This document shows positions 4,123-60,578 of a DNA stretch of 64,000 bases, one piece after another. Position 1 is the first letter of the stretch. Each line of letters begins with the position of its first letter. The notes below the pieces were generated by a model that searched no databases, was not told the DNA's origin, and saw nothing but the letters and a program-made list of their open reading frames with translations. The stretch lies in the IMG/VR virus record IMGVR_UViG_3300018432_000013, positions 32,001 to 96,000 of that record; one strand, written 5' to 3'. The DNA is from a virus. The position numbers and the translations under genes were made by a program.

Positions 4123-5034
4123 ATGCCGAAAGCCAGAACGACGAAGCAGCCAGCCACACCCGTGCGTGCCAAGGTCGACGACGCGCTCTGGGAAAAGATC
4201 CTGCTGTTTTACGTGAACAACCCGAAGCAGCACATGCAGGCCACCAAGGTCTTCGGGCTCTCGCGCCGCACCCTAACGGGGCTCTTCTACGAGGGCGCAC
4301 AGCACCTCAATAAGCCCCCGATGAAGAACCTGGTCGGCACCGTCGAGGTCCGTGCGCGCGCTCTTCGTGCAGGCCTACGAGACCAGGAGCTCGCGCGCGC
4401 CGACCAGGAAATCGACGCCATCATCAACGCCACTTCAGCAAGCGCTCTTGCGCAGAGCGTGGATGATGCGGCCCGCGCGCGCAGCGAGGAGGGAGCCGTC
4501 GTCGGTGCTGCGCGCCGCAACATCCTCTCACTGCAGTCGCTTCTGATCCCCCTGCTCGCAGGCGCCAAGAAGCGCGCGCGTGACCTCGAGAAGCTGCTCG
4601 ACAACGACCAGATTGAACCCTGGGAGCTGCTCAAGCTTTTCCGCGAGCTCGGCAAGTTCCAGCACGACCTCAACAGCGCTGCCAAGATCAACATGGACAT
4701 GGAGCGCATGCTGATGGGTGAGCCTGCCGAGTCGAAGACAGCGCAACCCATGACCCAGCGCGACGCCGTGCGCGTCCTCGAGCTCGGCGCGCGCACTCTC
4801 GAACGCATGCGCGGCAACGGCCGCCTGATTGAAGGTAAGGGGATCGAGGTCGCGCGTGTAGTAGCTAGCGCTGACGACGAGGAAGAGCTCGACCCGGAAG
4901 ACCTTGAGCCTGAGCCTTTCCCCGATGCGGGCGAAGAGAGTGAGCGCTTTGTACAACCTGAAGATCTCGCTGCGGCTGTGCGCACTCACTACGACCCAGA
5001 CGAGGAGATCTTCAACACGGAGGACGAGCCATGA
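4123..5034 (+). CDS. HTH + helical protein with acidic tail, possible terminase small subunit
   Basis: N-terminal HTH-like segment (HMQATKVFGLSRRTL), helical core, acidic C-terminus; antisense to the structural operon. Confidence 0.45.
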   Translation: MPKARTTKQPATPVRAKVDDALWEKILLFYVNNPKQHMQATKVFGLSRRTLTGLFYEGAQHLNKPPMKNLVGTVEVRARALRAGLRDQELARADQEIDAIINATSASALAQSVDDAARARSEEGAVVGAARRNILSLQSLLIPLLAGAKKRARDLEKLLDNDQIEPWELLKLFRELGKFQHDLNSAAKINMDMERMLMGEPAESKTAQPMTQRDAVRVLELGARTLERMRGNGRLIEGKGIEVARVVASADDEEELDPEDLEPEPFPDAGEESERFVQPEDLAAAVRTHYDPDEEIFNTEDEP

Positions 5035-34049: not shown

Positions 34050-34554
34050 AGGAACAGCTCCTCAAGGGACCGCTGCTTATCCGATAGCACAAGAGCTGCA
34101 GATTTTTCTAACAAAAGTGCAGCCCTTATTTTTTGATACAGGTGATAGCAAATTTTGCGTAGACAGGCGCTGGGGTGGGCCCCCTACGGGGGCCTCAGCG
34201 GCCCCGAAAACGAGGGCGAGATGTAGGTGGAGGGGGTTGCCTACCTGTGCGCGGCCCCCCGCACACACGCTGCCTACACCCTCTCTGTGTCCCGCCTCGC
34301 TCGTTTCCGATTCCCCATACTGTAAAGATACGCGTTAGCGTCCCTCGCGTCAAGCATGCGCACGCTGGCGCCCCTGCTTTTCTCGCTCGCCTGACTCTGC
34401 TTTGCGTGTCTCACGTCTAAGTTATCGGCCACGTGGCGCGAGACTTGAGAGAGAAAGAGCAGGGCCCTGCTCTTTCGTATCACGCAAAGGGCGCTTGCCT
34501 CCCGTGCTTTTCTCGTATCTACTAAGAACACCTCAGACACGGGAGCACGAAACC

Positions 34555-35079
34555 ATGGATCTAATCTCGACCACATTCGCACTTCTCTCATTGGCCAGCC
34601 TAGCCGTTTATACCCTGGCCTGTACATGGGCCCTATTCGCGACCTTCCCGCTAGCTGAGACGCTGGCTGTGGCGCAAGAGAAGGCATTCCGCGGTAGCGC
34701 CTCCCGTAGCCTGCTCGCTCCCGTGCCTGCTCTTCTCTCGGTTGGCCCCCATTCTGAGAAAAGAGCAGATCCGATTGCCGCGCTAGCGCGGCAATCGAGC
34801 CTTGCCGCGCTAGCGGCGCTGGCTCCCAAGTGCGAGCGCCCTAGCGCCCGCACTTCTCTCGGCCTCAGGATGCGCCGCCCACTGTCGGCGCGCCTTCCCG
34901 CATGGCTGGCCGATGATTCGGCCAGCGCCTCAGAGCCAGCCGAACGGGTTATCACCATGGGCCCATGCGTCGCATTGCTCGTTCCGCTTTCTCTTTCTCA
35001 GAGGGGCGCTCAGACTCTGAAAAGCAGCCACGGGAAGCGCCGCAGATCGGCACCTGCAATGCTGAGGCTCGCAGCGTAA
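34555..35079 (+). CDS. Hypothetical membrane-anchored protein, first gene of the array
   Basis: Shared leader ACGGGAGCAC before the ATG; hydrophobic N-terminus. Confidence 0.45.
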   Translation: MDLISTTFALLSLASLAVYTLACTWALFATFPLAETLAVAQEKAFRGSASRSLLAPVPALLSVGPHSEKRADPIAALARQSSLAALAALAPKCERPSARTSLGLRMRRPLSARLPAWLADDSASASEPAERVITMGPCVALLVPLSLSQRGAQTLKSSHGKRRRSAPAMLRLAA

Positions 35080-35575
35080 GCAGATACGAGAAAGCGAACC
35101 TACGCAGCCTTGACGTGCAAACGTCAAGGCTTTCACGCGTTTATGGTGGAAAGGTCGGCGCGGAGAAAGCGGCCCGCAAGGGCTGCGGTGTAGCTCGGCT
35201 GGCGCCTCGCATGGGAAGCACGCCAGCCAAAGTGCGAAAAAGCGTGTGATTTCGCTAGGCGGAATCGTGCGCTCGGGAAGCGCCAGCGTGCAACGCTCGG
35301 GAAGGCCGGGATAGCCGGGCAGTCGCACGGGTAGCCGGTCGGCGCTTGCCAGGCTTGCGAGCCTGAGAAGGTCGGGAAGGCATCGGATAGGTGGTCGGCG
35401 CTTGCATAGCTCGGGAGGCGGTAGCGTGGCGCATGGGAGGCGCTAGCTAAGCTTGCCCGGGTAACCTTGGCTCCCATACCGCTAGCGCTAGCCGGGCCCC
35501 TCTTTTGAGCCACGGGAAGCGCCAGCGCCTTCCCGAGCGGCTGAAAGAGAAAAGCACCGATCGCTCTTTTTCGAT

Positions 35576-35602
35576 TCAAGTTAGGCGCGGCAGTGCCGAT
35601 AA
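35576..35602 (+). promoter_or_regulatory. Sigma28/FliA-type promoter 1
   Basis: TCAAGTTA-N11-GCCGATAA. Confidence 0.75.
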
Positions 35603-35635
35603 CTAGGGCAGCAGCCCAGCAAAGGAATTCCGAAC

Positions 35636-35830
35636 ATGAAGCGCCGCAATCGGATTGTTTCGTTCCTGCCCACCAGCAGCAGGCATTGTTTTTACCTCGC
35701 AGCTACCGGCAGACTCACTCAACTTCGCTTAGAGGCTCAACTGTTTACGTCGAAAGAGGCACACGAGGCGCAGGCCAGCAGCAAAGATAGATACGGGCCC
35801 GGGCAATGGGGCATCGAGGCCGTTGGCTGA
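35636..35830 (+). CDS. Small array gene
   Basis: 64 aa between repeat units, SD AAGGA. Confidence 0.6.
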   Translation: MKRRNRIVSFLPTSSRHCFYLAATGRLTQLRLEAQLFTSKEAHEAQASSKDRYGPGQWGIEAVG

Positions 35831-35857
35831 AATCGAACGGACCTACTCTTTTTCGAT

Positions 35858-35884
35858 TCAAGTTAAGCGCGGCAGTGCCGATAA
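35858..35884 (+). promoter_or_regulatory. Sigma28/FliA-type promoter 2 (probably leaderless)
   Basis: TCAAGTTA-N11-GCCGATAA, 7 nt before the ATG. Confidence 0.75.
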
Positions 35885-35891
35885 CTAGGGC

Positions 35892-36107
35892 ATGAGCCGA
35901 ATGGAACAGATTGATGCGCGATGGGAACTCATGAGCGACGCGATTCGCGCGCTTCGCAGCTTGGGCGTCTCGCTCGAAACGCGCGAACGCCTCAGCAAGC
36001 TCCTCGATGCCGCTTGGACGCATGAGCGGACACTCGAGTGCGACCGGCTAGTCCGCGCCAGCACCGACAAAGGCGCGCGCGAGATGGTCGCCCGCTGGAT
36101 CGGCTGA
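35892..36107 (+). CDS. Small array gene
   Basis: 71 aa filling the space between repeats. Confidence 0.65.
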   Translation: MSRMEQIDARWELMSDAIRALRSLGVSLETRERLSKLLDAAWTHERTLECDRLVRASTDKGAREMVARWIG

Positions 36108-36134
36108 AATCGAACGGGCCCGCTCTTTTTCGAT

Positions 36135-36161
36135 TCAAGTTAGGCGCGGCAGTGCCGATAA
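36135..36161 (+). promoter_or_regulatory. Sigma28/FliA-type promoter 3
   Basis: TCAAGTTA-N11-GCCGATAA. Confidence 0.75.
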
Positions 36162-36202
36162 TACTTATGAGGCGCACGCAAGCGCCTCACGGGAGCACGA
36201 CA

Positions 36203-36625
36203 ATGGTTACCACGCTTGAAAAGATCGCGGCGCTTGAAACACTCGAGCAACTTCACGCCAGCGGTACGGCTCCCATCTCGCAAGATGCCTTGACGGATCT
36301 GATCAATGGCATCCGTGGCGAGCTGCATGCCGCAGAAGAGCGCGCCGGATACGATGCCGCGCAATCTGAGCTTGCCGCGTTTCAAGCGGCTCACATCTAC
36401 ATGAGCCGCGGTCTCAAATATGCGGCCGATTGCGCTTGCTGCGGCGCACACATTGCGCGCGCGCTGAAATACTCGGGAGGCCTCCCGGCGTACTGGCGCA
36501 AGTCAGACAAAGCGATCGTTTGCGTCGATTGCTACAGCGCCAGCGAGTTGAGCCAGCGGGCCGTTGCGTACGGCTGGGCGAGCAAGCTTGACGGGAGCCG
36601 CATCTTGCGCGATTGCGAGAAATAA
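36203..36625 (+). CDS. Array gene with Zn-finger (CACC...CVDC)
   Basis: Shared leader; start MVTTLEK. Confidence 0.7.
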   Translation: MVTTLEKIAALETLEQLHASGTAPISQDALTDLINGIRGELHAAEERAGYDAAQSELAAFQAAHIYMSRGLKYAADCACCGAHIARALKYSGGLPAYWRKSDKAIVCVDCYSASELSQRAVAYGWASKLDGSRILRDCEK

Positions 36626-36647
36626 CCGGGCCCGCTCTTTTTTCGAT

Positions 36648-36674
36648 TCAAGTTAGCGCGGCAAGCGCCGATAA
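36648..36674 (+). promoter_or_regulatory. Sigma28/FliA-type promoter 4
   Basis: TCAAGTTA-N11-GCCGATAA. Confidence 0.75.
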
Positions 36675-36717
36675 CAATGGTGAGGCGCAAGCAAGCGCCC
36701 GAACGGGAGCACGGGAA

Positions 36718-36888
36718 ATGACTTTTGACGAGTGCGACGGCGCCACGGTTACGCGGAAGCAAGCTCTCCGGGAGATCAAGCGCCACGCTTACAAGGCGCT
36801 TGACGAAATGATTGCCGAGTTCGACGCCGAGGTAGGCGTGTGTGAGCAATACGATGCCATGGCTGTCTTGATCTGGCTTGGCTACTGA
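36718..36888 (+). CDS. Small acidic array gene
   Basis: Shared leader; MTFDEC...YDAMAVLIWLGY. Confidence 0.7.
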   Translation: MTFDECDGATVTRKQALREIKRHAYKALDEMIAEFDAEVGVCEQYDAMAVLIWLGY

Positions 36889-37059
36889 CATGCGCCGATT
36901 CGTTGCCGAAACCATCGCGGCAATCGGCTGGATCCGCTTTCACGTGGCGCACTTAGCCGCATACAAGCGCCAGCGCCGCAACAGAGACTTGCGCGGATCG
37001 CGTTAGTCGTATCTAATAATCAAAGGTCGCAATCGAGCGACCGAACGGGAGCACGGAAC

Positions 37060-37317
37060 ATGCAGCATAAGCACGAAGTACGTTTGGTGTGCGGCAATCG
37101 CTACGATGCCGGTTTCACGGTTGTTTATAGCAAGCGCGTCCGCTCTGAGGCATGCGCACTGCGGATTGCTCGCAAGCTTCGCGACCGCCATTGCGAGGAA
37201 ACCCGAAGCGGCCGCAAGTGTCGCGATTTTGTCGAAGTGGCGAATCGCGGTAGTGGTGAATGCCTGACGTTGGACGCAAACCTAGTCCCGAGTGTGGGCG
37301 AGCTCGGTTACTGGTGA
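37060..37317 (+). CDS. Small array gene
   Basis: Shared leader, 85 aa. Confidence 0.65.
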   Translation: MQHKHEVRLVCGNRYDAGFTVVYSKRVRSEACALRIARKLRDRHCEETRSGRKCRDFVEVANRGSGECLTLDANLVPSVGELGYW

Positions 37318-37403
37318 TAGCGGCGCCTGCTGGCGCTGGTCTCGCGTAAGCGCGTTTGCCTCGCAAGCGCCTTTACTCGAGTCAAGCAACGGGAGCACGG
37401 AAC

Positions 37404-37880
37404 ATGGCCAAACAAACGAAAATCGAATCTCACGAGCTTACCGCCCCTGCAAGTTGGGCAAGCTACTTGATCAATGGCGATGCCTCAGGATTCGATTACT
37501 ACAATACGCCCAACGATGCCGCAGGCGATCGCGATCGGGAGGCTTGCGAAGCATGGATTGCGGCGCTTGCGGCCAATAACGCGCACGTAGTGAGCGCCAA
37601 TGGTGAGCCGTTTTTCGCGCGCTATTGCGATGCCGATCGGGTAGTTTCCGGATTGCTTGCGGGCGACATGCTCACTTACCAGATCTTGCGGCATGCGCCG
37701 ATCTACTACTCGCTGTCTATCCCGCACTCGAGCACTCCCACGGAATGGCATCCAACCGAAGCAACGGGCCCGTTTGCCGTGCTTAGTCGCGGTGCATTTG
37801 CCACGGAAGCGGAAGCCCACGAATGGGCCCGCACTCATCTTGCGGGCCAGCCGTATAGCGTCCGGGAGTTTGCCGGCTAA
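37404..37880 (+). CDS. Array gene (WASYLINGD.SG phage family)
   Basis: Shared leader; P..WAS.LINGD.SG motif recalled from phage small-gene regions. Confidence 0.7.
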   Translation: MAKQTKIESHELTAPASWASYLINGDASGFDYYNTPNDAAGDRDREACEAWIAALAANNAHVVSANGEPFFARYCDADRVVSGLLAGDMLTYQILRHAPIYYSLSIPHSSTPTEWHPTEATGPFAVLSRGAFATEAEAHEWARTHLAGQPYSVREFAG

Positions 37881-37980
37881 TCTCTCGCGTATCGCGAAAG
37901 AGTGTTGACCGGGCCCGGCTATCTCGTATCTAATAATCTCATAGGCGCGCAAGTGAGCGAGCCGAACGGGAGCACGGGAA

Positions 37981-38178
37981 ATGGCCAGCCGCAAAATTGA
38001 GACTCTGATCGTGGAAACGCTAGCCGCACTTGAAATCGAACGCATGATCGCGGAAGCGATTGCGGAAGCGACGATCGGCGCCGCTATCGCGGAATGTCTA
38101 GCCCTCACCGATTTCGATTGCGAGCGCTCTTATGTGGGCCCGATCGTGGCTTGCTCAGATATCGCACTTGCCGCATAA
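37981..38178 (+). CDS. Small Ala/Glu/Ile-rich array gene
   Basis: Shared leader, 65 aa. Confidence 0.55.
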   Translation: MASRKIETLIVETLAALEIERMIAEAIAEATIGAAIAECLALTDFDCERSYVGPIVACSDIALAA

Positions 38179-38187
38179 AGAAACCGC

Positions 38188-38214
38188 TAAAGCGATACGC
38201 GATAGTGCCGATAA
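38188..38214 (+). promoter_or_regulatory. Sigma28/FliA-type promoter 5
   Basis: TAAA-N15-GCCGATAA, the enterobacterial consensus, with flanks unrelated to the other copies. Confidence 0.75.
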
Positions 38215-38258
38215 CTAAGTGTGAGGCGCAAGCAAGCGCCCGAACGGGAGCACGCAAC

Positions 38259-38699
38259 ATGGCAACGAAGTACAAGCTAGTCTCTGGTGATGTGTCCGGC
38301 GCGCCCGCACTGTATGCGGCGCGAATCGACGAAACCACGTTCGCGGTTTACGAGATCAATGAATGGGAGGATCTCGATTCCTCCGCGGTCGAGACTCACG
38401 GGAAATACAACGTTCAGGCGGGAATCGTCGATGTGCGCGGTTTCGACAGCCACACACAGATTCCCGGCTATTTTTCGGATAGCGTGCGGAGCGCGCTGCA
38501 ATCGTGCGGCTGGGAAATCGACGGCAGCGGCAATATCTGGTGTCCTTACAGTGGTGACATTGTCGTCCAAGCTGGCTCGCCCGCATTCGAACTGTGTCTA
38601 GTCGAATGCCTGTGGCAGTACGGGGCAAAAGATGTTGCGGCCGATGTGTCCGGCGATAACTTGCGCAAGCTCGTGCGGGAAGCGCGCGCGGCAGTCTGA
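38259..38699 (+). CDS. Acidic array gene
   Basis: Shared leader; start MATKYKL. Confidence 0.7.
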   Translation: MATKYKLVSGDVSGAPALYAARIDETTFAVYEINEWEDLDSSAVETHGKYNVQAGIVDVRGFDSHTQIPGYFSDSVRSALQSCGWEIDGSGNIWCPYSGDIVVQAGSPAFELCLVECLWQYGAKDVAADVSGDNLRKLVREARAAV

Positions 38700-38757
38700 T
38701 ACCGGCTAGTGGCGCTAGCGCCTTTACTTGAATCGAACGGGCCCGCTCTTTTTCGAT

Positions 38758-38785
38758 TCAAGTAAGCGCGGCAAGCGGACGATAA
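38758..38785 (+). promoter_or_regulatory. Sigma28/FliA-type promoter 6 (variant, within 14-bp inverted repeat)
   Basis: TCAAGTAA-N12-GACGATAA. Confidence 0.6.
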
Positions 38786-38828
38786 CAATGGTGAGGCGCA
38801 AGCAAGCGCCCGAACGGGAGCACGCAAC

Positions 38829-39293
38829 ATGGCAACGATTACGTGGAACATGGGCAGCAACGTGGAAGCGGTCTCAATCAAAACGGCTAGCGCGCTCGAA
38901 ATCGCGATCGCAACCATCGTTGCAGAGCACGCCGATAGCTACCCGGACACGGGAGCCGTTGGATTCCTTAAGGATCTCGCGTACGGCGGTTGCGAGTCCG
39001 GCATGGTGGGCGAGCTTGTCTACTACCGCGATACGTGCGCCTTTTATGAGACACATCGGCGCGAGATCGCCACGCTATTGAGCGAGATGCTTGCCGATGT
39101 AGGCGCAGACTCACCTCAAGGCCTGTTCGGTGAAAAGTGGGATCGCGAAGATCCGCTCGCATTGGAGGAAACGAATCAAAACTTGCTTGCGTGGTTCGCT
39201 TGCGAGGAAACGGCGCGCCGGTTGACGCAACTTGCGCGTGAGAGCTTGCCGGATGCGAGCGCTGGCGCGCGCGCGCTTGAAACACTCCTCTAG
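38829..39293 (+). CDS. Acidic helical array protein, possible DNA mimic / anti-restriction protein
   Basis: FLKDLAYGGCESGMVGELVYYRDT..FY...NLLAWFACEE; acidic; function is inference. Confidence 0.55.
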   Translation: MATITWNMGSNVEAVSIKTASALEIAIATIVAEHADSYPDTGAVGFLKDLAYGGCESGMVGELVYYRDTCAFYETHRREIATLLSEMLADVGADSPQGLFGEKWDREDPLALEETNQNLLAWFACEETARRLTQLARESLPDASAGARALETLL

Positions 39294-39299
39294 TCGCTA

Positions 39300-39860
39300 C
39301 TTGCTCCCGTGGCGCAGCGAATCGGGCCCGCACTCTGCAAAACGAGTGCGGGCCCGATTCGCGTTTGCGGTTCGTTTGCGGCCGCTGGCGCTGGCTCCCG
39401 TGGCAACGCTGGCTCCCGTGCTCCCGTGGCGGCGCTGGCTTCCCGAGCGGCGCTGGCGCTGGCTTGCCGTGCTCCCGTGCTCCCGAGCGGCGCTGGCGCT
39501 GACCTTGCTCCCGTGGCGTGCTCCCGAGCGGCGCTGGCTTGCCGTGGCGCTGGCTTGCCGTGCTTCCCGAACGGCGCTGGCGTTCAAACTAGCCTCCCAT
39601 GCGCCTCGGGAAGGCGCGCCAGCGCCAGCGGCTAGCCGGACATAGCCGCACGCTACGCTGGCGCCGCTTGCGAGCAGCTAGCGCGCTTCCCGTGCTTCCC
39701 GTGCTTCCCGTGGCGCTGGCTCCCGTGCTCCCATGCTCCCGTGCGGCGCTGGCTCCCGTGGCTGGCTCCCGTGGCTGGCTCCCGTGGCTGGCTCCCGTGG
39801 CGCTGGCGCTGGCACTGGCTTGCCGTGTTCCCGAGCGGCGCTGGCTTCCCGTGGCATTGC
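39300..39860. repeat. Low-complexity tract of GCTCCCGTG / GCTGGC repeats
   Basis: 12 exact GCTCCCGTG plus variants; 13-bp unit GGCTCCCGTGGCT about x4 at 39751-39800. Confidence 0.9.
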
Positions 39861-39890
39861 CGCGACTTGCGAGAATCTTTCTTTTTCGAT

Positions 39891-39918
39891 TCAAGTAAAC
39901 GCGGCAAGCGGCCGATAA
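39891..39918 (+). promoter_or_regulatory. Sigma28/FliA-type promoter 7
   Basis: TCAAGTAA-N12-GCCGATAA. Confidence 0.65.
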
Positions 39919-39961
39919 CTTAGGTGAGGCCAGCGAGACGCTAGCCGGATGCGGAAAAAGA

Positions 39962-39996
39962 TTGACGGCAAACGAGCAGACCGGCTAATCTGATAC
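39962..39996 (+). promoter_or_regulatory. Sigma70-like promoter overlapped by TAATCTGATAC operator-like site
   Basis: TTGACG-N18-TAATCT. Confidence 0.55.
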
Positions 39997-40012
39997 TAGA
40001 AAGAGCGAGCAG

Positions 40013-40195
40013 ATGAAAAAGCCAACCAAGTATGTGTACGAATACATCGTACAGGGCCACTACGGTCAGGGATGGGAAGACCTGACCGCGCACGACACGC
40101 GCAAAGCGGCACGCGACGAGCGGCGCGTGTACGCGGCAAACGAGCCGGGCCCGCATCGGGTCATCTTCAGGCGCTCTCTCCGGCACACGGTTTGA
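40013..40195 (+). CDS. Small array gene (YG.GWE family)
   Basis: VQGHYGQGWEDL...Y..NE. Confidence 0.7.
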   Translation: MKKPTKYVYEYIVQGHYGQGWEDLTAHDTRKAARDERRVYAANEPGPHRVIFRRSLRHTV

Positions 40196-40316
40196 GCACA
40201 CGGGATCTCGCACACGGGATCTGCACACGGGTTGAGCCCTGCACACGAGCACACGGTCTCGCGCACACGGCTCAGAACGCGAGCACGCGGTCTGACAGCA
40301 CACGGGAGCACGAATC

Positions 40317-40628
40317 ATGGCAATGAACGCTGACATCGAACACGCGCGCACACGGCTTCTCGCGGTCCTCTCGGAGGGCTCAAAAGTCTACTGCGTACTT
40401 CGCACACGGTCTAAGTCGGGAATGTCGCGCACGGTGTCTTTCTTCACCTACCACGACGGGCACATGGTTTGGCTTGACGGCTACATGCACACGGTTTGCG
40501 GCTTCGCCCGCAAAGGCGATTCGCTGGTCATCAAGGGTGTTGGGCAGGACGCGGGGTTGCACGCGGTTTCGACGCTAGCCGCGAAGCTCTTCGGCCGCTC
40601 CGATGCGCTAGGCCACGAGTGGCTCTGA
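40317..40628 (+). CDS. Array gene (G..VY..LR..S.SGMSR phage family)
   Basis: Shared leader; motif recalled from uncharacterised phage proteins ending in WL. Confidence 0.75.
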   Translation: MAMNADIEHARTRLLAVLSEGSKVYCVLRTRSKSGMSRTVSFFTYHDGHMVWLDGYMHTVCGFARKGDSLVIKGVGQDAGLHAVSTLAAKLFGRSDALGHEWL

Positions 40629-40736
40629 ACTGAACATGCACGCGGGATCGCGCGCTGAGGTTCTCTCGCAATCCGCACACGGGATCGCGCTCGAATCTGA
40701 GCACACGGGCTCAACTTTCACGGGAGCACACGGCAC

Positions 40737-41000
40737 ATGGAAAAACATTACAGCTACGGTTCAGGCTCAACGGGCTGCATGTACGATTCAGGCCCGCACA
40801 CGGCTTCGACTCTCGAAGACGCAATCGAAGGCGCGCTGTGTATCTTCGACGACCTTAGCGACGGCGCGCTCGCTTGTGCACGCGCGGATCTACTCGCACA
40901 CGGGATCCACTACTTCCCTGAACTAGTACGCGGATACGCTGGCGCCGATTACGTCGAAGTGGTCGAGCAAGCCGGTCCCTGCCCTGAGTCCGACGACTGA
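40737..41000 (+). CDS. Small acidic array gene
   Basis: Shared leader, 87 aa, G..GCMYD. Confidence 0.7.
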   Translation: MEKHYSYGSGSTGCMYDSGPHTASTLEDAIEGALCIFDDLSDGALACARADLLAHGIHYFPELVRGYAGADYVEVVEQAGPCPESDD

Positions 41001-41111
41001 ACGCACACGGGATCGCACGCGAGGATCGCGCGCTGAGATTCTTCCGCCAGCCTGCACACGGCTTGCGCTCGAATCTGAGCACACGGGCTCAACTTTCACG
41101 GGAGCACGAAC

Positions 41112-41303
41112 ATGGGAAACATGAAGCACTACACGCTACAGATTCGCAAGCCTGGCCGCGCATATCGCACGGTCGAGACTTCGACCGACGCCGCATCGAT
41201 TCGCTGGGCTTTCGACCAGCACTTGGTGCCTTACGGTGAGAGCAGCGTGCGAATCTTGGACACGAACGGCGCAGTCATCATGCGCGCCACGCCAAAGCAG
41301 TAA
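41112..41303 (+). CDS. Small array gene
   Basis: Shared leader, 63 aa. Confidence 0.7.
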   Translation: MGNMKHYTLQIRKPGRAYRTVETSTDAASIRWAFDQHLVPYGESSVRILDTNGAVIMRATPKQ

Positions 41304-41406
41304 CGCACACGGGATCGCACGCGGGATCGCGCGCTGAGATTCTCTCGCAATCCGCACACGGGATCGCGCTCGAATCTGAGCACACGGGCTCTAAGGAGTA
41401 AGACAC

Positions 41407-41775
41407 ATGGCAAGGCAGCGCAAACTTGGTTCACGGCAGAAGGCAAACGCGGACGCTGCATTCCTGGCCGCATTCGAGCGCGCAATGGTACTACTCGGCG
41501 CCACGAAGCGCGCGGACTGGACGTGGACAGCACATGAGTACGAAATCGAAACGCGTGCAGGTCGACTCGGCATCACGGGTTATCCCACGTCGCTCTCGGA
41601 GCCAGGCGGTTGGGTGGCGATGCGCTTCGACGACACCGAGCGCGCGAACACACTCGGACTCGGACAGCTCCTCAACAGGAATAGCGGCAAGTACAACGTA
41701 GATAGCCTGTACGGCTGCTCAGACGCGACCGAAGTTACCGACACGATCATGCGCCACGTACAGCGCGCGCTCTGA
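41407..41775 (+). CDS. Array gene
   Basis: SD TAAGGAG, 122 aa between repeats. Confidence 0.7.
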   Translation: MARQRKLGSRQKANADAAFLAAFERAMVLLGATKRADWTWTAHEYEIETRAGRLGITGYPTSLSEPGGWVAMRFDDTERANTLGLGQLLNRNSGKYNVDSLYGCSDATEVTDTIMRHVQRAL

Positions 41776-41882
41776 AAGATTGCGCACGCGGGATCGCGCG
41801 CTGAAATCTGCACACGGGCTTGCCTCGCACGCGGTCTGCAGATTTGAGCACACGGGCTCAACTTTCACGGGAGCACACGGTC

Positions 41883-42068
41883 ATGAAATACATCCTGAAG
41901 CAAGAGACGAACGACGGGATTTGGACTAGCGAAGCGTTCGAGGCGCCGCACGAGCACGCGGTAAAGCAAGCGGTCGTCGCCGGCTACCTGAACGGCTCGG
42001 CACGCTGGGCAGAGACGCTCGACGGCACGCGCATCTACGGCCTAGACAAAAAAGGAAAGCAGCTCTGA
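41883..42068 (+). CDS. Small array gene
   Basis: Shared leader; start MKYILKQ. Confidence 0.7.
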   Translation: MKYILKQETNDGIWTSEAFEAPHEHAVKQAVVAGYLNGSARWAETLDGTRIYGLDKKGKQL

Positions 42069-42181
42069 GTCGCACACGGGATCGCACGCGGGATCGCGCG
42101 CTGAGATTCTTTCGCCAGCCTTGCACACGGCTTGCGCTCGAATCTGAGCACACGGGCTCAACTTTCACGGGAGCACGGAAC

Positions 42182-42406
42182 ATGGAAAAAGACACAAGCC
42201 ACCTAGGCGCGCTACAGGTTCGCCTCTCGCACGAACGAAACCGCCTGAACGCAGCGAAGACGGAAGGCGAGCGCGAACTTCGCCAAGTCTGGGTCGCTCA
42301 GATTGAAAAGGAAATCGCAGGCGAGAAGGCTTTCCTCGGGATGGTTGACGAATCTCCTACGACTGAGATGAGCGCTGACGACCTTCTCGCTGAACTTCTC
42401 GCCTGA
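42182..42406 (+). CDS. Small helical array gene
   Basis: Shared leader, 74 aa. Confidence 0.75.
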   Translation: MEKDTSHLGALQVRLSHERNRLNAAKTEGERELRQVWVAQIEKEIAGEKAFLGMVDESPTTEMSADDLLAELLA

Positions 42407-42510
42407 ACCTGCACGCGGGATCGCGCGCTGAGATTCAACCGCCAGCCTGCACACGGCTTGCGCTCGAATCTGAGCACACGGGGCTCAACGCACACGGGAG
42501 TTTACGAAAC

Positions 42511-42726
42511 ATGGAAACGAAAAAGCAGCACACGGCGCCAGTTCTTAGGCTCGCTTCGGTTCGGCGGACGCGCACACTCTTCGTGCTGCGCTACGAAGAG
42601 GGACAGGGCGAGAGGCGCAAAGGTGATTATCTCTACCTGCTCACGCGGGATCGCGCAGACAAGGTCATCGACCGCGCGCGCCGCCTTGGAATCCGCGTCT
42701 TTCGGATCCCCTACCGCATTCGCTGA
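42511..42726 (+). CDS. Small basic array gene
   Basis: Variant leader ACGGGAG, 71 aa. Confidence 0.6.
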   Translation: METKKQHTAPVLRLASVRRTRTLFVLRYEEGQGERRKGDYLYLLTRDRADKVIDRARRLGIRVFRIPYRIR

Positions 42727-43129
42727 CTCGCACACGGGATCTCGCACACGGTTTCGTGCATAGCAGACTGCGCTTCGGGTTTGGGGCCTCCATCGTGCTC
42801 CCACACTCGCCCAAACTACGAAGCGCTCTCTGCTGCACACGAACTCCGCACACGGCACGCACCTCGCACACACGGATTTCCAATTAAGTTCTACGCCACG
42901 TACGAATACGTCACACGCATGCACGCGGTAGTCACGCTAACGGACGAGCAAAAACAACTTTGCCGGTGCTTACCGCGTCGAGTACCGACCCGGCCACAAC
43001 ATCTACGAAACAAGCTTCAAACACGCCGAGCAAGCCGCAGCCCTCAAAGGCGGTCGGCTTGAGCGGTTCACCCGGGTCTGAAGCACACGGCACGCACCTC
43101 GCACACGGCATTCAAGGAGGAACACGGCA

Positions 43130-43387
43130 ATGGCACACGGATTCACACGCGACTGCCTCGTCTCAATCATCTACGACGTGCTCGACAAGCGCTGGGACGG
43201 CGACATGAGCCCATACAAAATCTCAGAAGTCGCAGCCGACGCACTCATCACAGCCGGCATCGAGGTCGCTACAGAACCGAGCGAAGAAGAGCGCGAGATT
43301 GCCGCATGCGAAGCGCGCGCCGAGCTCGATGAGTACCTGCTCGATCTTCACAACGATCAACTCGCTGACGAGGCGATGGGCAAATGA
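43130..43387 (+). CDS. Acidic hypothetical protein
   Basis: SD AAGGAGG. Confidence 0.7.
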   Translation: MAHGFTRDCLVSIIYDVLDKRWDGDMSPYKISEVAADALITAGIEVATEPSEEEREIAACEARAELDEYLLDLHNDQLADEAMGK

Positions 43388-43575: not shown

Positions 43576-43866
43576 ATGCCAACGCCCACCCCCATCAAGC
43601 TCACGCTCGTACGCGCAGGCCTCGAAGCCATCGAGCGGCACGTAGAGAAGATTCCCTATCACGCAAACCTCATCCGCTCCGACCTCGAAGCGAGCTACCT
43701 GGAGCGCGAGCGCGCGCTCTTCATCTCGCAGCAGTGCGTCAGCATCCGCGATGCGCTCGCGAGCGCTCTGCGCGCAATCAACGCGATCGACAAGGACGCG
43801 CAGCAATACCTTGCCGAGACCGATCCGAACCCTTCATCTCACGCCCGACTCCCGAATAAAGATTGA
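43576..43866 (+). CDS. Hypothetical protein
   Basis: 96 aa, SD AAGGA. Confidence 0.6.
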   Translation: MPTPTPIKLTLVRAGLEAIERHVEKIPYHANLIRSDLEASYLERERALFISQQCVSIRDALASALRAINAIDKDAQQYLAETDPNPSSHARLPNKD

Positions 43867-43890
43867 CGGTGCTACCGGCGGTGCTACCAT
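43863..43890 (+). promoter_or_regulatory. Sigma70 promoter of the TA operon with direct-repeat operator
   Basis: TTGACG-N16-TACCAT with extended TG; GGTGCTACC twice; ATG 7 nt downstream. Confidence 0.65.
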
Positions 43891-43897
43891 GGCTGCT

Positions 43898-44119
43898 ATG
43901 GCTACCGTCCACAAGATCAGCATCTCGCTCGGCTCTGAAGACCTCGAATGGGCACGCAAAAAGGCCGAAGAAACTGCGAGTAGTGTCTCCGCAGTGATGA
44001 GCGGCGCACTGCGCCGGGAGCAACAACACGAAGCGCGACTAAAGCTTCTCGAGTGGCTCGGTACGGACGACATCACCGAAGCAGACCGTGAAGCCATACG
44101 CCTAGAACTACGCTCGTGA
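43898..44119 (+). CDS. RHH-type antitoxin (VapB-like)
   Basis: KISISL...A......SVSA....ALR; GTGA overlap with the PIN gene. Confidence 0.75.
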   Translation: MATVHKISISLGSEDLEWARKKAEETASSVSAVMSGALRREQQHEARLKLLEWLGTDDITEADREAIRLELRS

Positions 44120-44493
44120 CACGCGGCATTACGTTCGACACGGGCGCACTGATCGCGCTTGAACGCCGCCAAAAACGCATGCGCAGCATCGTGACTGAAG
44201 CCACCCTTCAAGGTCTCACGATCACCATTCCAGCTCCTGTGCTCACCGAGTGGTGGCGCAAACCAAGCGCAGCCCAGACGAATATTCTCCGCGCGTTCGA
44301 GGTGGAGCCGCTCACAGAACGCCTCGCAAAGCTCGCTGGTGAGGCCATCGAAAGCGTCGCACACGCAACACCCATCGACGCCATCGTGATGGCCAGCGCA
44401 GCATCACGAGGAGACATCGTGTTCACGAGCGACTTCGACGATCTTGATCGCTTGCGCGCCTATTTTCCCAACGTCCGAGTCTTACGCACATGA
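44116..44493 (+). CDS. vapC: PIN-domain toxin (VapC-like)
   Basis: FDTGALIA, VLTE, DAIV, TSD.DD acidic PIN residues. Confidence 0.85.
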   Translation: MTRGITFDTGALIALERRQKRMRSIVTEATLQGLTITIPAPVLTEWWRKPSAAQTNILRAFEVEPLTERLAKLAGEAIESVAHATPIDAIVMASAASRGDIVFTSDFDDLDRLRAYFPNVRVLRT

Positions 44494-44585: not shown

Positions 44586-44786
44586 ATGAAGTCCAAAGTC
44601 GTCGTCGTGCTCGTGTTTCTCGGCTCGCTCAGCATCGGCTGGGCGACGGCTCCCGCACCCGCAGAGTGCCGCATGTGCCAGTCCAAGGCCTGCTCAAGCG
44701 ATCGCAGCTGCGGCGACGCCTGCACGTGCGTGTGGCCTGACGGCAAGGACTACAAGCGCGGCGTCTGCGTGCGGATGGGGAGCTGA
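44586..44786 (+). CDS. Secreted Cys-rich peptide
   Basis: Signal peptide plus 7 Cys in about 40 aa; upstream TTGACG-N18-TACGAT promoter. Confidence 0.65.
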   Translation: MKSKVVVVLVFLGSLSIGWATAPAPAECRMCQSKACSSDRSCGDACTCVWPDGKDYKRGVCVRMGS

Positions 44787-46970: not shown

Positions 46971-47357
46971 ATGGAACCAAGACGCCGTGATACTACGATA
47001 CCGGGCCAGCGCGACGCATCGGCACCGAAGACGCTTGCGCCTCTGAACGCACGCATGCTCGAGACTTCAGGGCTTTACGACTTCGATGTCGTGGATTTCG
47101 ACACGGCCGTCACGGACGACGGCGCGATCGAGTTCTGGGCGGACGTGTACGACCGGGTCCGCGAGCACACGGTCATCGTGACCGGCCGCTGGGACAGGGC
47201 ACACGCGGCATTCGAGCGCGTGTGGCTCGACGAGGCCGAGCTCGGGCCCCAGCACCCGCTGCGCCGCACCATCGAGAGCGACAACTACATCGCGCGCGAG
47301 TGCGGCCGCGCCGCCGACCACGCCGCCCAGAGCGCACTCGAAGCGGCGCGTTGGTGA
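46971..47357 (+). CDS. Hypothetical protein
   Basis: ATG directly after an AT-rich promoter-like element. Confidence 0.55.
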   Translation: MEPRRRDTTIPGQRDASAPKTLAPLNARMLETSGLYDFDVVDFDTAVTDDGAIEFWADVYDRVREHTVIVTGRWDRAHAAFERVWLDEAELGPQHPLRRTIESDNYIARECGRAADHAAQSALEAARW

Positions 47358-47668
47358 TGGGCATGCTCAGCCTACGCAAAGCCACCGAAGTCCGCTGGGG
47401 GCGCCGCCTTGAGCTCGGAACCGTCTACCGGATCGTGGGCCAGTTCCACGTGCAGACCGAGGCGAAGGGCACCTTGCACGCGTGTCTCGTGCCCGTCGTC
47501 GCCGGCATGTACCAGGGCCAGCTCTCAGGCGACCCGACGCGCCACGTATTCACCGACACCGATGGCCTGCGCTACGTCGTCTCGAGCCCGGCGCACACGT
47601 GCGGACTGACCACCGCGCGCGTCTACCGCTTCCCCAAAAAGCGCGTGTCCGCGGCGCGCGCGGCGTAG
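47357..47668 (+). CDS. Hypothetical protein
   Basis: TGATG coupling. Confidence 0.5.
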   Translation: MGMLSLRKATEVRWGRRLELGTVYRIVGQFHVQTEAKGTLHACLVPVVAGMYQGQLSGDPTRHVFTDTDGLRYVVSSPAHTCGLTTARVYRFPKKRVSAARAA

Positions 47669-49359: not shown

Positions 49360-50001
49360 ATGCGCGCTGACGTGCAGTCTCCAGCCGACGTGATCACCGA
49401 TGAGATTGAGCGGATCATTGCGAAGCTAGCGCGGGACGTGGCAGAGCGTCTTCGCTCCTGCGACCGCTACCAAGCCAGACAAGACATCGCACAGGCCTTG
49501 CGCCTGGTCGCGCTGCAAGAAGCGCCCAAGTATCGCGGCGACAACGGCGCGACCCTAGCGACATTCCTCTACCGAGCGCTGCGTGTCAAAGCCTGGTCGG
49601 TCGGCTTCTGGCTCGACCTGCCCACGCATGTCGCAAAGAACAAGCGCACGGGCGTTTGGACCACGCGCACGGCTGCGCAGACCGACAAGCGCGCTACGGA
49701 TGCACGCGCACCGAGAGACGACTTACCGCCTGCCGAGGCCATGGACCTGATCCGCGACCCCGAAGACCTCGAGAGCCGCCTCGCAGACCGCGAGATCGCC
49801 GCGCGTGTCGAGGCCGTTCTGCACGAGGATCCACAGCACGAGGCGATTGCTCGTGTGCTGTTCGACGGCGAGAAGGCACCCGACGTGGCACGCGACACGG
49901 GGGTACCCATCGGCGACCTTCGCAAGTGCATCGTACGCACACGCGCACGGCTTCGACGCGACCCGACGCTGCAAGAGCTCTACTTCCGCTGCCTGGCGTG
50001 A
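49360..50001 (+). CDS. Phage-encoded sigma70-family sigma factor (regions 2 and 4)
   Basis: DIAQ.....LQEA.KY..DNGATLATFLY..LR (region 2-like) and DVARDTGVP....RK...R.R..LR (region 4 HTH); SD AGGAG. Confidence 0.7.
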   Translation: MRADVQSPADVITDEIERIIAKLARDVAERLRSCDRYQARQDIAQALRLVALQEAPKYRGDNGATLATFLYRALRVKAWSVGFWLDLPTHVAKNKRTGVWTTRTAAQTDKRATDARAPRDDLPPAEAMDLIRDPEDLESRLADREIAARVEAVLHEDPQHEAIARVLFDGEKAPDVARDTGVPIGDLRKCIVRTRARLRRDPTLQELYFRCLA

Positions 50002-57941: not shown

Positions 57942-60578
57942 GTGCGAACACTCCCGCTGTTCGAGGCTCCGCTCCCCACACCCATCGCCACCGGCCCGCG
58001 GCTCATCCGCGAGGACAAGTGCCGACGCTGTGAGCTCGGAGGCTTCGGCCACACGACCTGCATCCCGGCCGAAGGCGTTGAGGGGAAAGACTCGGCTCAA
58101 GGACTTGTGCTGGTGATTGGCGACTCACCGACCTTGGAAGAAGACCGGCAAGGCCGCCCGATGATTGGCGTCAACGGGCGCTCGGTCCGGCGCGTGATCG
58201 AAAAGCACTGGGCCGGCGACTACGTGCTCGACTACGCCGTGCGCTGCCACGTCACGCGCCGCGACACAAAGGTCGTGCCGGAAGCGCAGAAGCAGTGCGC
58301 GCCCTATCTGCGCGAGACGTTCACGCAGACGATGCCCGATCGCGTACTCGTGATCGGGGGGCCCGCTGCGCGCGCTGTGCTTGGGCGTAGCGTCAAGCCA
58401 TTCGACACGCGCAAGAACTACACCTGGGTCGAGCACATGAGCGGGAAGAAAGTCCCCGTGTTCGTGCTGATGGCAGTCGCAGGCTCCGTGCGAAACAGGC
58501 ACCTGCTGCGCATGCTCGAAGAAGACTTCGCGTGGGCACTCACCGTCGATCTGGCCACGCTCATGCCGCCGCTCGACCTCGATCCGAACGCCGTGTTTCA
58601 CATCGTGGAAAACGAGGCCGATGCGCGCGTCGCATCCGACGCGCTGCGTGAGCACGACTGGGTAGCGTACGACTGCGAGACGGGAGGCCGGCAGTTCTCA
58701 AGCTTCTTTCGCAACGTGTGCGTGGGCGTAGCGCCCGCCGAGGGCGACACCGCGTACGTCTGGGGCCGTCAAGCCCTCGCTGACGCAGGCGCCCTCGGCG
58801 TGCTCCGAGAGCTTATGGAAGATCCCGCCGTCGGCAAGGTCGGGCACAACGAGAAATACGACAAGCTGTCGCTGCGCGCCGGCAGTGAGACCCTCGTCCA
58901 AGGCCACGTGCTCGATACGCAGCTCGCGCGTCACCTCGAGCTCCCGGGCTGCGATGCGCAGCTGAACACGGTGAGCGAGCTCGTCGGCATGGGCGGCTAC
59001 TGGGAGAGCTTCTTGCCGCATCTGAAGCGCGCGCAGGAGCTCGTCAAAAAAGCGCGCACGAAGTCGAACAAGGGGCGCCAGCTCCGGCTGCTCGACGAGG
59101 ACGAGGTGCTTGTCGCGGCCATCGAGCATCCCAAGGAAGACGTCGACGCGTACGCGTACGCGCTCGTGAAGTCGCCACTGCTCGAACGCTACAACGCGTG
59201 TGACTGCATCGCGACGGCGCGCGCGGCGCGCTCACGCTCGGGCTTTGAGCTCGTGACCAAGTTCCCGCCCGCGCGCAACATCTGGCGTAGCGTCGTCCGC
59301 CACACCACCAACGCGATCGAACAGATCGAAGCGTGGGGCATCGCTGTGGACGACGGCGCGATGGAGCAGTTCAACCGCTACATCGCAGGCGAAGTAGAAA
59401 AGGTCGAGCGCCGACTCAGCCTCTACAAGATCAACCCAGCGTCCCCAGACCAAGTTGCCGAGCTCCTCTTCGACAAACTCAAGCTGCGCAACCCGCAAAA
59501 TCCGAAGTCGCGCTCGACCGACAAGAAGGCGCTCAAGGCGATGCTGGGCCAGCACCCGGTCATCGAAGACCTGCGCGAGCACAGACGGCTTGGCAAACTC
59601 GACAGCGCCTACGGCTCGCTCGGCGCGTTCGTGCGCGCGGACGGGCGCATTCATCCGAGCTTCAAGATTGACGGCGCTGAAACGGGACGCCTCTCAGTCG
59701 TCGACCCGGCCCTGCATACGCTTCCGCGCAGCAAGGACGCGGAAGGTCACGAGGAGGGCGGGCTCGTCAAGAGCATGTTCTGCGCGCGCTTAGGTTACAG
59801 ACTCCTCGAGCTCGACCAGTCGCAGATCGAGCTGCGCGCTGCCTGCATTCTTTCTGGCGACCCGGTGATGCGGCAAATCTTCACTTCAGGCGAAGACTTT
59901 CACCTCACCTCGGCCAAGCTCATCGCCCCGACGATGTGGAACATGGCACCGGAAGACGTGGGCGATGCGCAGCGCAGCGTCACGAAGAGCTTCGTGTTCG
60001 GGCTGCTCTACGGCATGACCGACTACGGCATGGCCGCGCGCATGAACTGCTCACTCGACGAGGCTGCGCGACTGCGCGCGGCCATCATGGGCAAGTTCAC
60101 GCGCCTCGCTGACTGGATCACGGAGTGCGTGCGGGAGGCGCGCAAAACAGGCCTCGTGGTGACTCCTTGGATGGGCGCGCCCGGACGCATCCGCGATCTG
60201 CACCAGATTGTGAACTTCGACGCGGGCGACTACAGCCCTGAGAACACCAAGGCGATGGCCGCCAAGCGCACGGCAGAAAACGGCGCCGTCAACACGCCCT
60301 GCCAGACACTCGCGAGTGACTTTGTGCTGCATGCGCTCTGCACGCGCATCGTGCCTTGGCTGCAGCAGGACCACTCAGTCGACGCCAAGGTCGTGATGAC
60401 CGTGCACGACTCCATCCTCTTCGAGGTCCGAGAAGACCAGCTGCGGCTTGTCTCACGCACCGCGCGCCAGATGATGGCCGACTACGAGACCGGGGGGTTG
60501 CCGCTCGTGGTCGACGAGAAGGAGGGCGCGAACTGGGGTAACCTCGACAAGGTGCCAAAGCTTCAAGCAGCAGCCTAA
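57942..60578 (+). CDS. polA: Family A DNA polymerase with N-terminal uracil-DNA glycosylase-like domain
   Basis: C..C.L...GDSP..EED..GRP..G (UDG family 4-like); exonuclease DCET, HN.KYD, YN..D; polymerase DQSQIELR, R...K...FG.LYG, HDS. Confidence 0.92.
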   Translation: MRTLPLFEAPLPTPIATGPRLIREDKCRRCELGGFGHTTCIPAEGVEGKDSAQGLVLVIGDSPTLEEDRQGRPMIGVNGRSVRRVIEKHWAGDYVLDYAVRCHVTRRDTKVVPEAQKQCAPYLRETFTQTMPDRVLVIGGPAARAVLGRSVKPFDTRKNYTWVEHMSGKKVPVFVLMAVAGSVRNRHLLRMLEEDFAWALTVDLATLMPPLDLDPNAVFHIVENEADARVASDALREHDWVAYDCETGGRQFSSFFRNVCVGVAPAEGDTAYVWGRQALADAGALGVLRELMEDPAVGKVGHNEKYDKLSLRAGSETLVQGHVLDTQLARHLELPGCDAQLNTVSELVGMGGYWESFLPHLKRAQELVKKARTKSNKGRQLRLLDEDEVLVAAIEHPKEDVDAYAYALVKSPLLERYNACDCIATARAARSRSGFELVTKFPPARNIWRSVVRHTTNAIEQIEAWGIAVDDGAMEQFNRYIAGEVEKVERRLSLYKINPASPDQVAELLFDKLKLRNPQNPKSRSTDKKALKAMLGQHPVIEDLREHRRLGKLDSAYGSLGAFVRADGRIHPSFKIDGAETGRLSVVDPALHTLPRSKDAEGHEEGGLVKSMFCARLGYRLLELDQSQIELRAACILSGDPVMRQIFTSGEDFHLTSAKLIAPTMWNMAPEDVGDAQRSVTKSFVFGLLYGMTDYGMAARMNCSLDEAARLRAAIMGKFTRLADWITECVREARKTGLVVTPWMGAPGRIRDLHQIVNFDAGDYSPENTKAMAAKRTAENGAVNTPCQTLASDFVLHALCTRIVPWLQQDHSVDAKVVMTVHDSILFEVREDQLRLVSRTARQMMADYETGGLPLVVDEKEGANWGNLDKVPKLQAAA

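Follow-up and report, generated by a model that had tools for sequence, protein, structure and literature searches.

Short oriented words whose action does not depend on their location, such as Chi, KOPS, stoperators and nuclease sites, are rare and informative, each of them pointing to a machine that reads one strand. The present analysis concerns the octamer GCACACGG, which forms a dense array in the early region of an uncultured phage, hereafter G000. The 112,926-bp IMG/VR record of this phage (IMGVR_UViG_3300018432_000013) has ends that overlap by 123 bp (circular assembly), and bases 32001-96000 of it make up the window analysed here, a stretch of 64,000 nucleotides whose coordinates are used unless genome coordinates are stated.

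Several described systems combine short or structured elements with small or early genes. RNase III hairpins lie between the early genes of T7, and the T4 nuclease RegB acts on GGAG sites in early mRNAs. In Cluster K mycobacteriophages, a short conserved sequence containing a Shine-Dalgarno motif, named start-associated sequence (SAS), is located just before the starts of many small genes and in one orientation; about half of these sequences have an imperfect inverted repeat directly upstream (extended form, ESAS), and the function was left unassigned in that paper (PMC3203893). With regard to Chi, phage LLS carries 23 sites, 20 of which are in the active orientation and clustered at one end, while the 32 sites of phage MD8 are all in one orientation and represent its commonest octamer (PMC12315714). 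The stoperators of Cluster A mycobacteriophages are asymmetric 13-bp sites, more than 20 in number, present at promoters and in short intergenic spaces and oriented with transcription; when a stoperator is reversed, the block is abolished (PMC9283540). In T4-type phages, the PeSL cassettes consist of near-identical intergenic stem-loops flanking unrelated small early ORFans (PMC2839356, PMC4122927). The G000 locus recalls each of these systems in some respect. As described below, its octamer array is a real, selected and oriented signal, carried by a structured expression unit in G000 and present as a bare word in the nearest relative.

The octamer in G000 and its nearest relative

On the two strands of the window, GCACACGG occurs 41 times, compared with 4.6 +/- 2.2 times in shuffled sequences (maximum 10), which rules out chance or low complexity as its source. 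Thirty-seven of these copies are found within 40183-43140, all on the plus strand and none on the minus strand; the initial annotation, made from the letters alone, had counted about 36 by hand, and the seven copies that it placed within 40183-40305 were all recovered. Genome-wide, 38 copies on the plus strand face 4 on the minus strand, and 37 of the 38 fall inside the 3 kb; the word ranks tenth among octamers by frequency. The same polarity is seen for the one-mismatch octamers of the 39.2-43.4 kb region, with 17 copies on the plus strand, including ten of GCACGCGG, versus one on the minus strand. The extended consensus in G000 spans 12 nt, namely, GCACACGG-[G/C]-N-T-C, and the 7-mer GCACACG is 89-fold enriched in the zone relative to the rest of the genome. 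No antisense partner for the octamer was found in the genome, and Dam/GATC sites are not enriched (6.3/kb in the zone vs 5.9/kb overall).

Eight exact copies lie inside open reading frames (ORFs), in frames 0, 1 and 2, where they encode RTR (two), xHT (four) or AHG (two). Six of them, at 40348, 40402, 40487, 40796, 40896 and 43133, had been listed beforehand, to which those at 40183 and 42528 are now added. Synonymous-codon resampling according to three schemes (genome codon usage, local codon usage and permutation; 5000 trials) gave an expectation of 1.1-1.8 copies in these ORFs; none of the 5000 trials reached eight, the maximum being six. It had been proposed that function would show at the synonymous positions of the in-ORF copies, and the outcome of this resampling favours function. 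The nine ORFs of the array belong to no Pfam family and show no paralogy among one another, and protein-atlas look-ups of two of the array proteins returned nothing informative. Two protein homologues of ORF 40317-40628, sharing 74% and 51% identity, were retrieved from a large protein collection. The residues under its three octamers are kept in the 74% homologue, and the RTR triplet at residues 29-31 is invariant.

No close phage is present in GenBank, the identity of PolA and TerL being below 30%. A TerL search delineated a family of ~100-127-kb uncultured phages, the family alignment recovering 80 loci in viral contigs. One TerL, P0006, has 76% identity and is encoded by a 117-kb contig. 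The closest relative for which DNA is available, G001, has a length of 116,020 bp and a TerL 59% identical to that of G000. Its structural and replication modules are syntenic with those of G000, with 35-65% protein identity and in inverted orientation. None of the tiny early genes is common to the two phages, these genes having been fully replaced. At the syntenic place, G001 harbours six exact octamers in 1.4 kb on the sense strand. Furthermore, 14 of its 19 GCACACG on the motif strand fall inside one 4-kb window, and 18 copies are found in an 8.8-kb zone, the genes of which are placed on the motif strand by their GC content at the three codon positions (GC1/2/3). The cluster precedes the homologue of gene 47222-47668 by ~4.3 kb in G001 versus 4.1 kb in G000. 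Among the 7-mers enriched in both early zones, GCACACG leads by a wide margin (55-fold in G001), with no reverse complement in the G000 zone and one in the G001 zone. Most G001 copies, at a density of ~2 per kb, are inside ORFs, where ten occurrences distributed over three frames compare with 2.2 expected (synonymous permutation, 0/3000).

The proposal made in the initial annotation of an oriented signal selected at the nucleotide level is thus upheld by an in-ORF excess over codon expectation, both in G000 and in a distant syntenic relative. Since this excess is accompanied by the same heptamer at the syntenic place in G001, we conclude that the octamer is a selected nucleic-acid signal and not a duplication relic. 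Tandem duplication of paralogous genes is itself ruled out, the array proteins being unrelated while the intergenic units that separate their genes are 62-96% identical. In G002-G005 and G010-G014, which are more distant relatives, no octamer cluster was found. When viral and metagenome collections were scanned for octamer triplets, unrelated tandem repeats only were obtained, one locus (L145) being a bacterial thyX locus, and no further relative with DNA was found by way of the DUF7222 protein, PolA or the 103-aa and 344-aa proteins.

G001 also possesses repeated words of its own (L257/L258; rotated 15.5-21 kb), comprising GTTAGCG(C/T)GTAAC-type inverted repeats in intergenic spaces and an RBS (ribosome-binding site)-associated word, AAGGTGGC(A/T)ACG, before ATG. 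In addition, a 660-bp run of 18-bp repeats encodes a hexapeptide-repeat protein.

Intergenic units, start-associated decamer and left tract

Most octamers of G000 sit in a ~105-nt intergenic unit that recurs ahead of six to nine tiny early genes unrelated to one another, an intergenic space (IG) containing three to seven copies (Table 1). After the stop codon, IG3, IG4 and IG6 alone have an exact copy; the unit then continues with one GCACGCGG variant, a hairpin of ~50 nt and a further copy, which overlaps the 3' foot of the stem and is followed by AACTTT, the decamer ACGGGAGCAC, 4-6 nt and the ATG. The hairpin folds alike in every unit from IG2 to IG7: the lower stem has 3+6 bp, the internal loop is 3x3, the upper stem has 7 bp with one mismatch, and the terminal loop measures 7-8 nt. 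The hairpins lack a U-run and end ~20-25 nt upstream of the decamer, another octamer lying in between. The unit, combining a hairpin with a standard RBS, represents a compact natural expression cassette.

In the alignment of the six units, 96.9% of the cells are paired and 7 of the 16 pairs are changed on both sides, which none of 500 shuffles matched and compares with 16-38% pairing in slid-register controls, although this covariation rests on six paralogous copies only, from which the structure itself was read. The IG5 stem has been rebuilt through three compensatory pairs. For the ACA at the centre of the motif, an unpaired probability of 0.8-0.9 is predicted, versus a background of 0.45. 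Within the units, a sequence scan detected no promoter-like or terminator-like site, and the search of the 33-45 kb region with Rfam covariance models gave one sub-threshold chance match only. A different hairpin, long and very stable, is present in IG8 at ~42750-42845 (z = -3.4; 0/200 shuffles) and may represent a terminator or a small RNA.

A covariance model of the unit matches the six G000 copies and, weakly (21 bits), a G001 intergenic hairpin with the motif at its top; two of the three intergenic G001 copies are located in hairpin tops. The ~105-nt unit is absent from G001, which uses another RBS-associated sequence and has not kept the flanking consensus of the octamer. Because G001 retains the clustered motif without the unit, the conserved feature is, judging from these two genomes, the oriented 7-8-mer of the early zone, and the unit is the way in which G000 packages it.

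The high identity of units IG2-IG7 (62-96%) around unrelated ORFans, together with the complete replacement of the early genes between the two phages, brings to mind a recombination scaffold without a dedicated recogniser, namely, a PeSL-like mobile cassette for the swapping of tiny genes by homologous recombination, in which homogenisation of the units would yield the octamer as a by-product. However, such a scaffold explains neither the exact octamers in the varied flanks of IG1, IG8 and IG9 nor the in-ORF excess over synonymous expectation, the heptamer is enriched in G001 where the unit is absent, and no promoter was detected inside the units. We therefore consider it very improbable.

With regard to the decamer ACGGGAGCAC, all 13 copies in the genome are on the plus strand, in window positions 34539-42176, and each is separated by 4-6 nt from the ATG that follows. 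The decamer is thus a start-associated sequence, which marks ~8 kb of tiny early genes and is confined to the early region. The octamer and the decamer share ACGG/GCAC half-sites.

Upstream of the array, a non-coding left tract displays the opposite polarity. It had been noted that the CACGG core diverges from about 40.0 kb, and this is true of the pentamer, with a CCGTG:CACGG ratio of 20:0 in 39.3-39.9 kb and a CACGG:CCGTG ratio of 48:0 in 40.1-43.2 kb. It does not extend to the octamer, as the left tract contains no reversed copy; the two sides therefore carry two different motifs sharing a core. The functional centre that had been placed at 40.0 kb was not retained either, given that the left-tract motif is of another (anti-RBS) type, that G001 has no CCGTG/CACGG mirror arrangement, and that neither an origin nor a terminus was located. 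The tract includes a terminator-like hairpin at 39324-39355 and, if read through from upstream genes, might provide an RNA that works as an anti-RBS on the CACGGGAGC-type RBSs found in the array. As for the Pseudomonas-type Chi GCTGGCGC, it was rejected as the left-tract element, with only 6 copies there and a 17:17 strand ratio genome-wide. Seven T(C/A)AA-N15/16-G(C/A)CGATAA motifs resembling sigma28 promoters were also noticed, at 35576, 35858, 36135, 36648, 38188, 38758 and 39891, each ahead of a small gene of the left module, plus one reversed copy at 34448.

Possible readers of the octamer and genomic setting

Which molecule carries the signal is a matter of graded likelihood. Our preference, held tentatively and with somewhat less than even confidence, is for a sense-strand recognition site that acts at the RNA level and controls the fate of early transcripts. 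Within the rightward early operon, GCACACG(G) would form the core of a cis-acting signal that is located on the sense strand and read most likely on RNA. A sequence-specific RNA-binding protein or endoribonuclease, either phage-encoded and common to G000 and G001 or host-encoded, would recognise the motif on early transcripts and set their fate, whether by processing them at the hairpins, by making them decay or persist, or by shutting off their translation. The tiny early genes would in this manner be timed in expression as one block.

In support of this proposal, all 37 exact copies and 17 of the 18 near copies are on the strand that is sense for the genes, which are co-oriented, as is likewise observed in G001, and such polarity follows by definition if RNA is what is read. 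In-ORF copies in three frames above expectation fit a site working anywhere in the mRNA, and a word working anywhere on one strand points to a recogniser that tracks or sees one strand. Copies are moreover tied to transcript features, namely, the stop codon, the hairpin and the RBS, and the zone starts just 3' of promoter-like elements. These fixed places in a hairpin and RBS unit, on the sense strand, are no less well explained by a signal in the transcript than by one for a DNA translocase. The covarying hairpin, the presentation of the motif in its loop, the unpaired ACA, the joint enrichment of GCACACG in two zones with non-homologous genes, and the half-sites in common with the decamer likewise count in favour of RNA. 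That RNA rather than DNA is read, and how the recogniser acts, are inferences.

A number of observations weigh against RNA-level recognition. Polarity is equally expected of a DNA signal, since the genes are co-oriented and no opposite-strand gene exists in either zone. The hairpin context is not essential, since most G001 copies are found in ORFs without the unit. The octamer occupies the apical loop in five of the six units, but the stem arms in IG5, and its accessibility over 8 nt is not above background (0.027 vs 0.045). Family searches of the small array proteins gave no candidate recogniser, and the PIN-domain protein encoded just 3' of the array has no homologue in G001. Finally, we know of no RNA operator whose need would not be exceeded by seven copies in 123 bp.

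An orientation matching transcription and copies that are mostly intergenic, with some in ORFs, would also be found with stoperator-like elements, i.e. asymmetric double-stranded DNA sites at which a phage repressor blocks the elongating RNA polymerase according to orientation and thereby silences the early operon. The extended consensus of 12 nt is similar in size to a stoperator, and the nearest relative has the motif too, as would be expected of an immunity specificity. However, the sites are confined to 3 kb instead of being genome-wide, their density is ~20x higher, the 13-14-bp spacing leaves little room for a two-domain repressor, and G001 has not retained the consensus of the flanks. 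No integrase or ParB match and no other sign of lysogeny was detected, and no repressor candidate turned up, although no search aimed at the stoperator domain was made. Such a role thus appears improbable.

The genes for replication (helicases and PolA, 50-60 kb) begin a few kb beyond the octamers, which are direct repeats of a single orientation and might alternatively be a replication element, either origin iterons or sites on the complementary strand at which primase prefers to start. Iterons can lie within genes, as in the lambda O gene. Nevertheless, 37 copies over 3 kb and nine genes are far more spread than any known origin, and the site has no AT-rich unwinding region, no shift in cumulative GC skew and no adjacent initiator gene; we hold a replication element to be hardly probable at all.

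Recognition of the DNA itself by a Chi-like or translocase mechanism, the main rival, which we consider unlikely but still worth weighing in some detail, would involve the octamer or its complement CCGTGTGC regulating a host helicase-nuclease of the RecBCD/AddAB type or another strand-tracking motor. Octamers would then be stacked beside a DNA end, at a virion terminus or packaging cut at ~40.0 kb, such that the entering enzyme is switched off or oriented at once. This is consistent with an 8-nt core whose flanks are not conserved between the two phages, with the single orientation, with the frame-independent in-ORF excess, and with the position of the word among the commonest octamers (38 vs 4, rank 10), while the spread of G001 copies, at ~2/kb and mostly in ORFs, resembles LLS and MD8. 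No RecT, ERF or YqaJ match was found in the phage, as would be expected of the Chi-rich class, although Gam-type inhibitors and other recombinases were not searched and many genes are without annotation. The mirror switch between CCGTG and CACGG at 39.9-40.1 kb, together with the order of terminator, repeat tract, promoters and tiny early genes, would look like a concatemer junction, by analogy with genomes of the T7 type.

Conversely, TerL is too remote from characterised phages for the packaging mode to be deduced, the left tract lacks the reversed octamer, and the mirror is absent from G001. The octamer is not over-represented in four metagenome-assembled genomes carrying TerL relatives, nor does it ever exceed ~2x control in 201 sampled Gammaproteobacteria, which is a weak test; two genomes of this set, G053 and G155, are unpublished and support no claim made here. 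A Chi-like role does not account for the constant position of the octamer in hairpin loops and next to RBSs, and 12 copies per kb is far above the density of Chi-rich phages. In two of the sampled Gammaproteobacteria (G032:C1 and G127:C1), the first 19 listed octamers, over 1-1.4 Mb, are all on one strand each, which suggests that the word follows a replichore skew without over-representation in some bacteria.

Beyond the choice of molecule, it is conceivable, though rather doubtful, that the octamer represents a type of strand-specific control word that is new to phages, acting either as a host-Chi shield at the first-entering genome end or as a hairpin-presented RNA tag, which a lineage-specific phage factor would read in order to switch off exchangeable early genes. 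If true, both versions would amount to a fixed address label that is kept while the labelled genes are replaced. In the Chi version, the host Chi and the phage terminus would be revealed from sequence alone. Whichever the version, the word is exact, extremely dense, maintained against codon preference and common to phages without local gene homology; it is therefore older and more constrained than the genes that it labels. The recogniser, once found, would explain how the early ORFan genes, a likely host-takeover and anti-defence set, are timed or protected in this family of ~100-127-kb phages.

Concerning the genomic setting, late and structural genes, including those for the portal, terminase and prohead protease, occupy the minus strand up to ~33.9 kb. 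Small plus-strand genes follow at 34.4-39.3 kb, then a non-coding region at 39.3-40.0 kb and the array of tiny plus-strand genes at 40.0-43.4 kb. Located 3' of the array, the early and replication genes of the plus strand code for a PIN-domain protein, an ECF (extracytoplasmic function)-like sigma factor, helicases and PolA. The gene for the PIN-domain (VapC-like) protein (44116-44493) shares 4 nt with the 122-aa ORF that precedes it, the two genes (43751-44493) having a toxin-antitoxin-like arrangement just 3' of the array. A 213-aa protein (49360-49998) has sub-threshold matches to ECF-type sigma factors (Sigma70_r2 E = 3.6e-4; TIGR02937 E = 7e-4); a homologue sharing 27% identity is encoded by G001, whereas G002 and G003 gave no match. 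The proteins encoded at 47222-47668 and 44586-44786 are likewise common to G000 and G001 but not to G002 and G003. In the family A DNA polymerase (57942-60578), an N-terminal domain of the uracil-DNA-glycosylase superfamily is fused to the protein together with a 3'-5' exonuclease. Outside the window, at genome positions 106100-108560, a CRISPR-like array contains ~35 repeats (GTCTCAGCTTCAAGGGCGCTGAGCAGCC...) with variable spacers, and solitary copies of the repeat are present at genome positions 4157-4186 (minus strand) and 104521-104554 (plus strand).

Table 1. Features of the octamer array and of its upstream region, in window coordinates.
Feature	Position	Strand	Description
Left tract	39300..39870	+	Non-coding; 20 CCGTG, 0 CACGG; GCTCCCGTG-type repeats complementary to the RBS decamer
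Promoter region ahead of array	39891..39991	+	Two promoter-like elements
sigma28-like promoter	39891-39918	+	TCAA-N16-GCCGATAA
sigma70-like promoter	39962-39991	+	Weaker; TTGACG-N18-TAATCT; seen by eye, unflagged by promoter scan
Tiny early ORFs 1-5	40013-40195, 40317-40628, 40737-41000, 41112-41303, 41407-41775	+	
Tiny early ORFs 6-9	41883-42068, 42182-42406, 42511-42726, 43130-43387	+	
Octamer zone	40183..43140	+	37 exact GCACACGG and 17 one-mismatch copies, all on the sense strand
IG1	40183..40316	+	Densest cluster: 7 exact and 2 variant copies, 13-14 nt spacing
IG1 extent	End of ORF 40013-40195 to RBS of ORF 40317	+	Degenerate unit without conserved hairpin
IG2	40629..40736	+	Hairpin 40654-40702, octamer in apical loop; 99.6 bits
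IG3	41001..41111	+	Hairpin 41032-41080
IG4	41304..41406	+	Hairpin 41333-41381; AGGAG RBS in place of shared decamer
IG5	41776..41882	+	Hairpin 41800-41849; stem altered by compensatory substitutions, octamer in 5' arm
IG6	42069..42181	+	Hairpin 42100-42149; 107 bits
IG7	42407..42510	+	Hairpin 42427-42475
IG8/IG9	42727..43129	+	~400 nt without convincing ORF; 5 octamers; AGGAGG RBS before ORF 43130; degenerate

Relation to described systems

Several identities could be discarded by domain searches or strand counts. An integron cassette array (attC) is ruled out by the lack of any Phage_integrase match in the genome, and a ParB/parS or iteron centromere by the lack of a ParB_N match. The phage has no NusG-family match, which argues against a non-template-strand signal of the ops/RfaH type, although the host may have such a paralogue. 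Promoters of a single-subunit RNA polymerase were rejected, the sole RNA_pol match being weak and inside PolA. The same applies to self-targeting by the CRISPR-like array of the phage, for which repeat-to-repeat matches only were obtained, with no match between its spacers and the early region.

Among the closest systems, the Chi sites of LLS and MD8 have in common with the G000 octamer a place among the commonest octamers, a nearly single orientation, clustering in one part of the genome and a location inside genes. The G000 octamer is not, however, a known Chi, differing from both the E. coli and the Pseudomonas-type sequences; its density is ~10x that of the Chi sites, and most copies are fixed in a structured intergenic unit. 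Stoperators are likewise present in many asymmetric copies, oriented with transcription and in short intergenic spaces, but they are 13 bp in length, number 20-36 genome-wide and are bound by a known two-domain repressor, whereas G000 has an 8-nt core with 37 copies in 3 kb. A PeSL cassette consists of an early sigma70 promoter and a terminator stem-loop and has no multi-copy octamer, in contrast to the G000 units, in which no promoter or U-tract terminator was found.

As with the RNase III hairpins of T7 and the RegB sites of T4, a structured element or a short, putative nuclease site is found between cistrons and would be confined to early transcripts. The G000 hairpin is nevertheless interrupted and shorter than two full helical turns, and its motif has 8 nt instead of 4 and occurs in both loop and flanks. 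The SAS/ESAS elements of Cluster K mycobacteriophages resemble the decamer of G000 rather than its octamer: ACGGGAGCAC contains a Shine-Dalgarno motif and stands 4-6 nt before ATG in 13 copies of one orientation, and six units have a covarying hairpin upstream of it. The octamer, by comparison, is a third element, present in the loop, in the flanks and in ORFs, and it is kept in a relative that uses another SAS.

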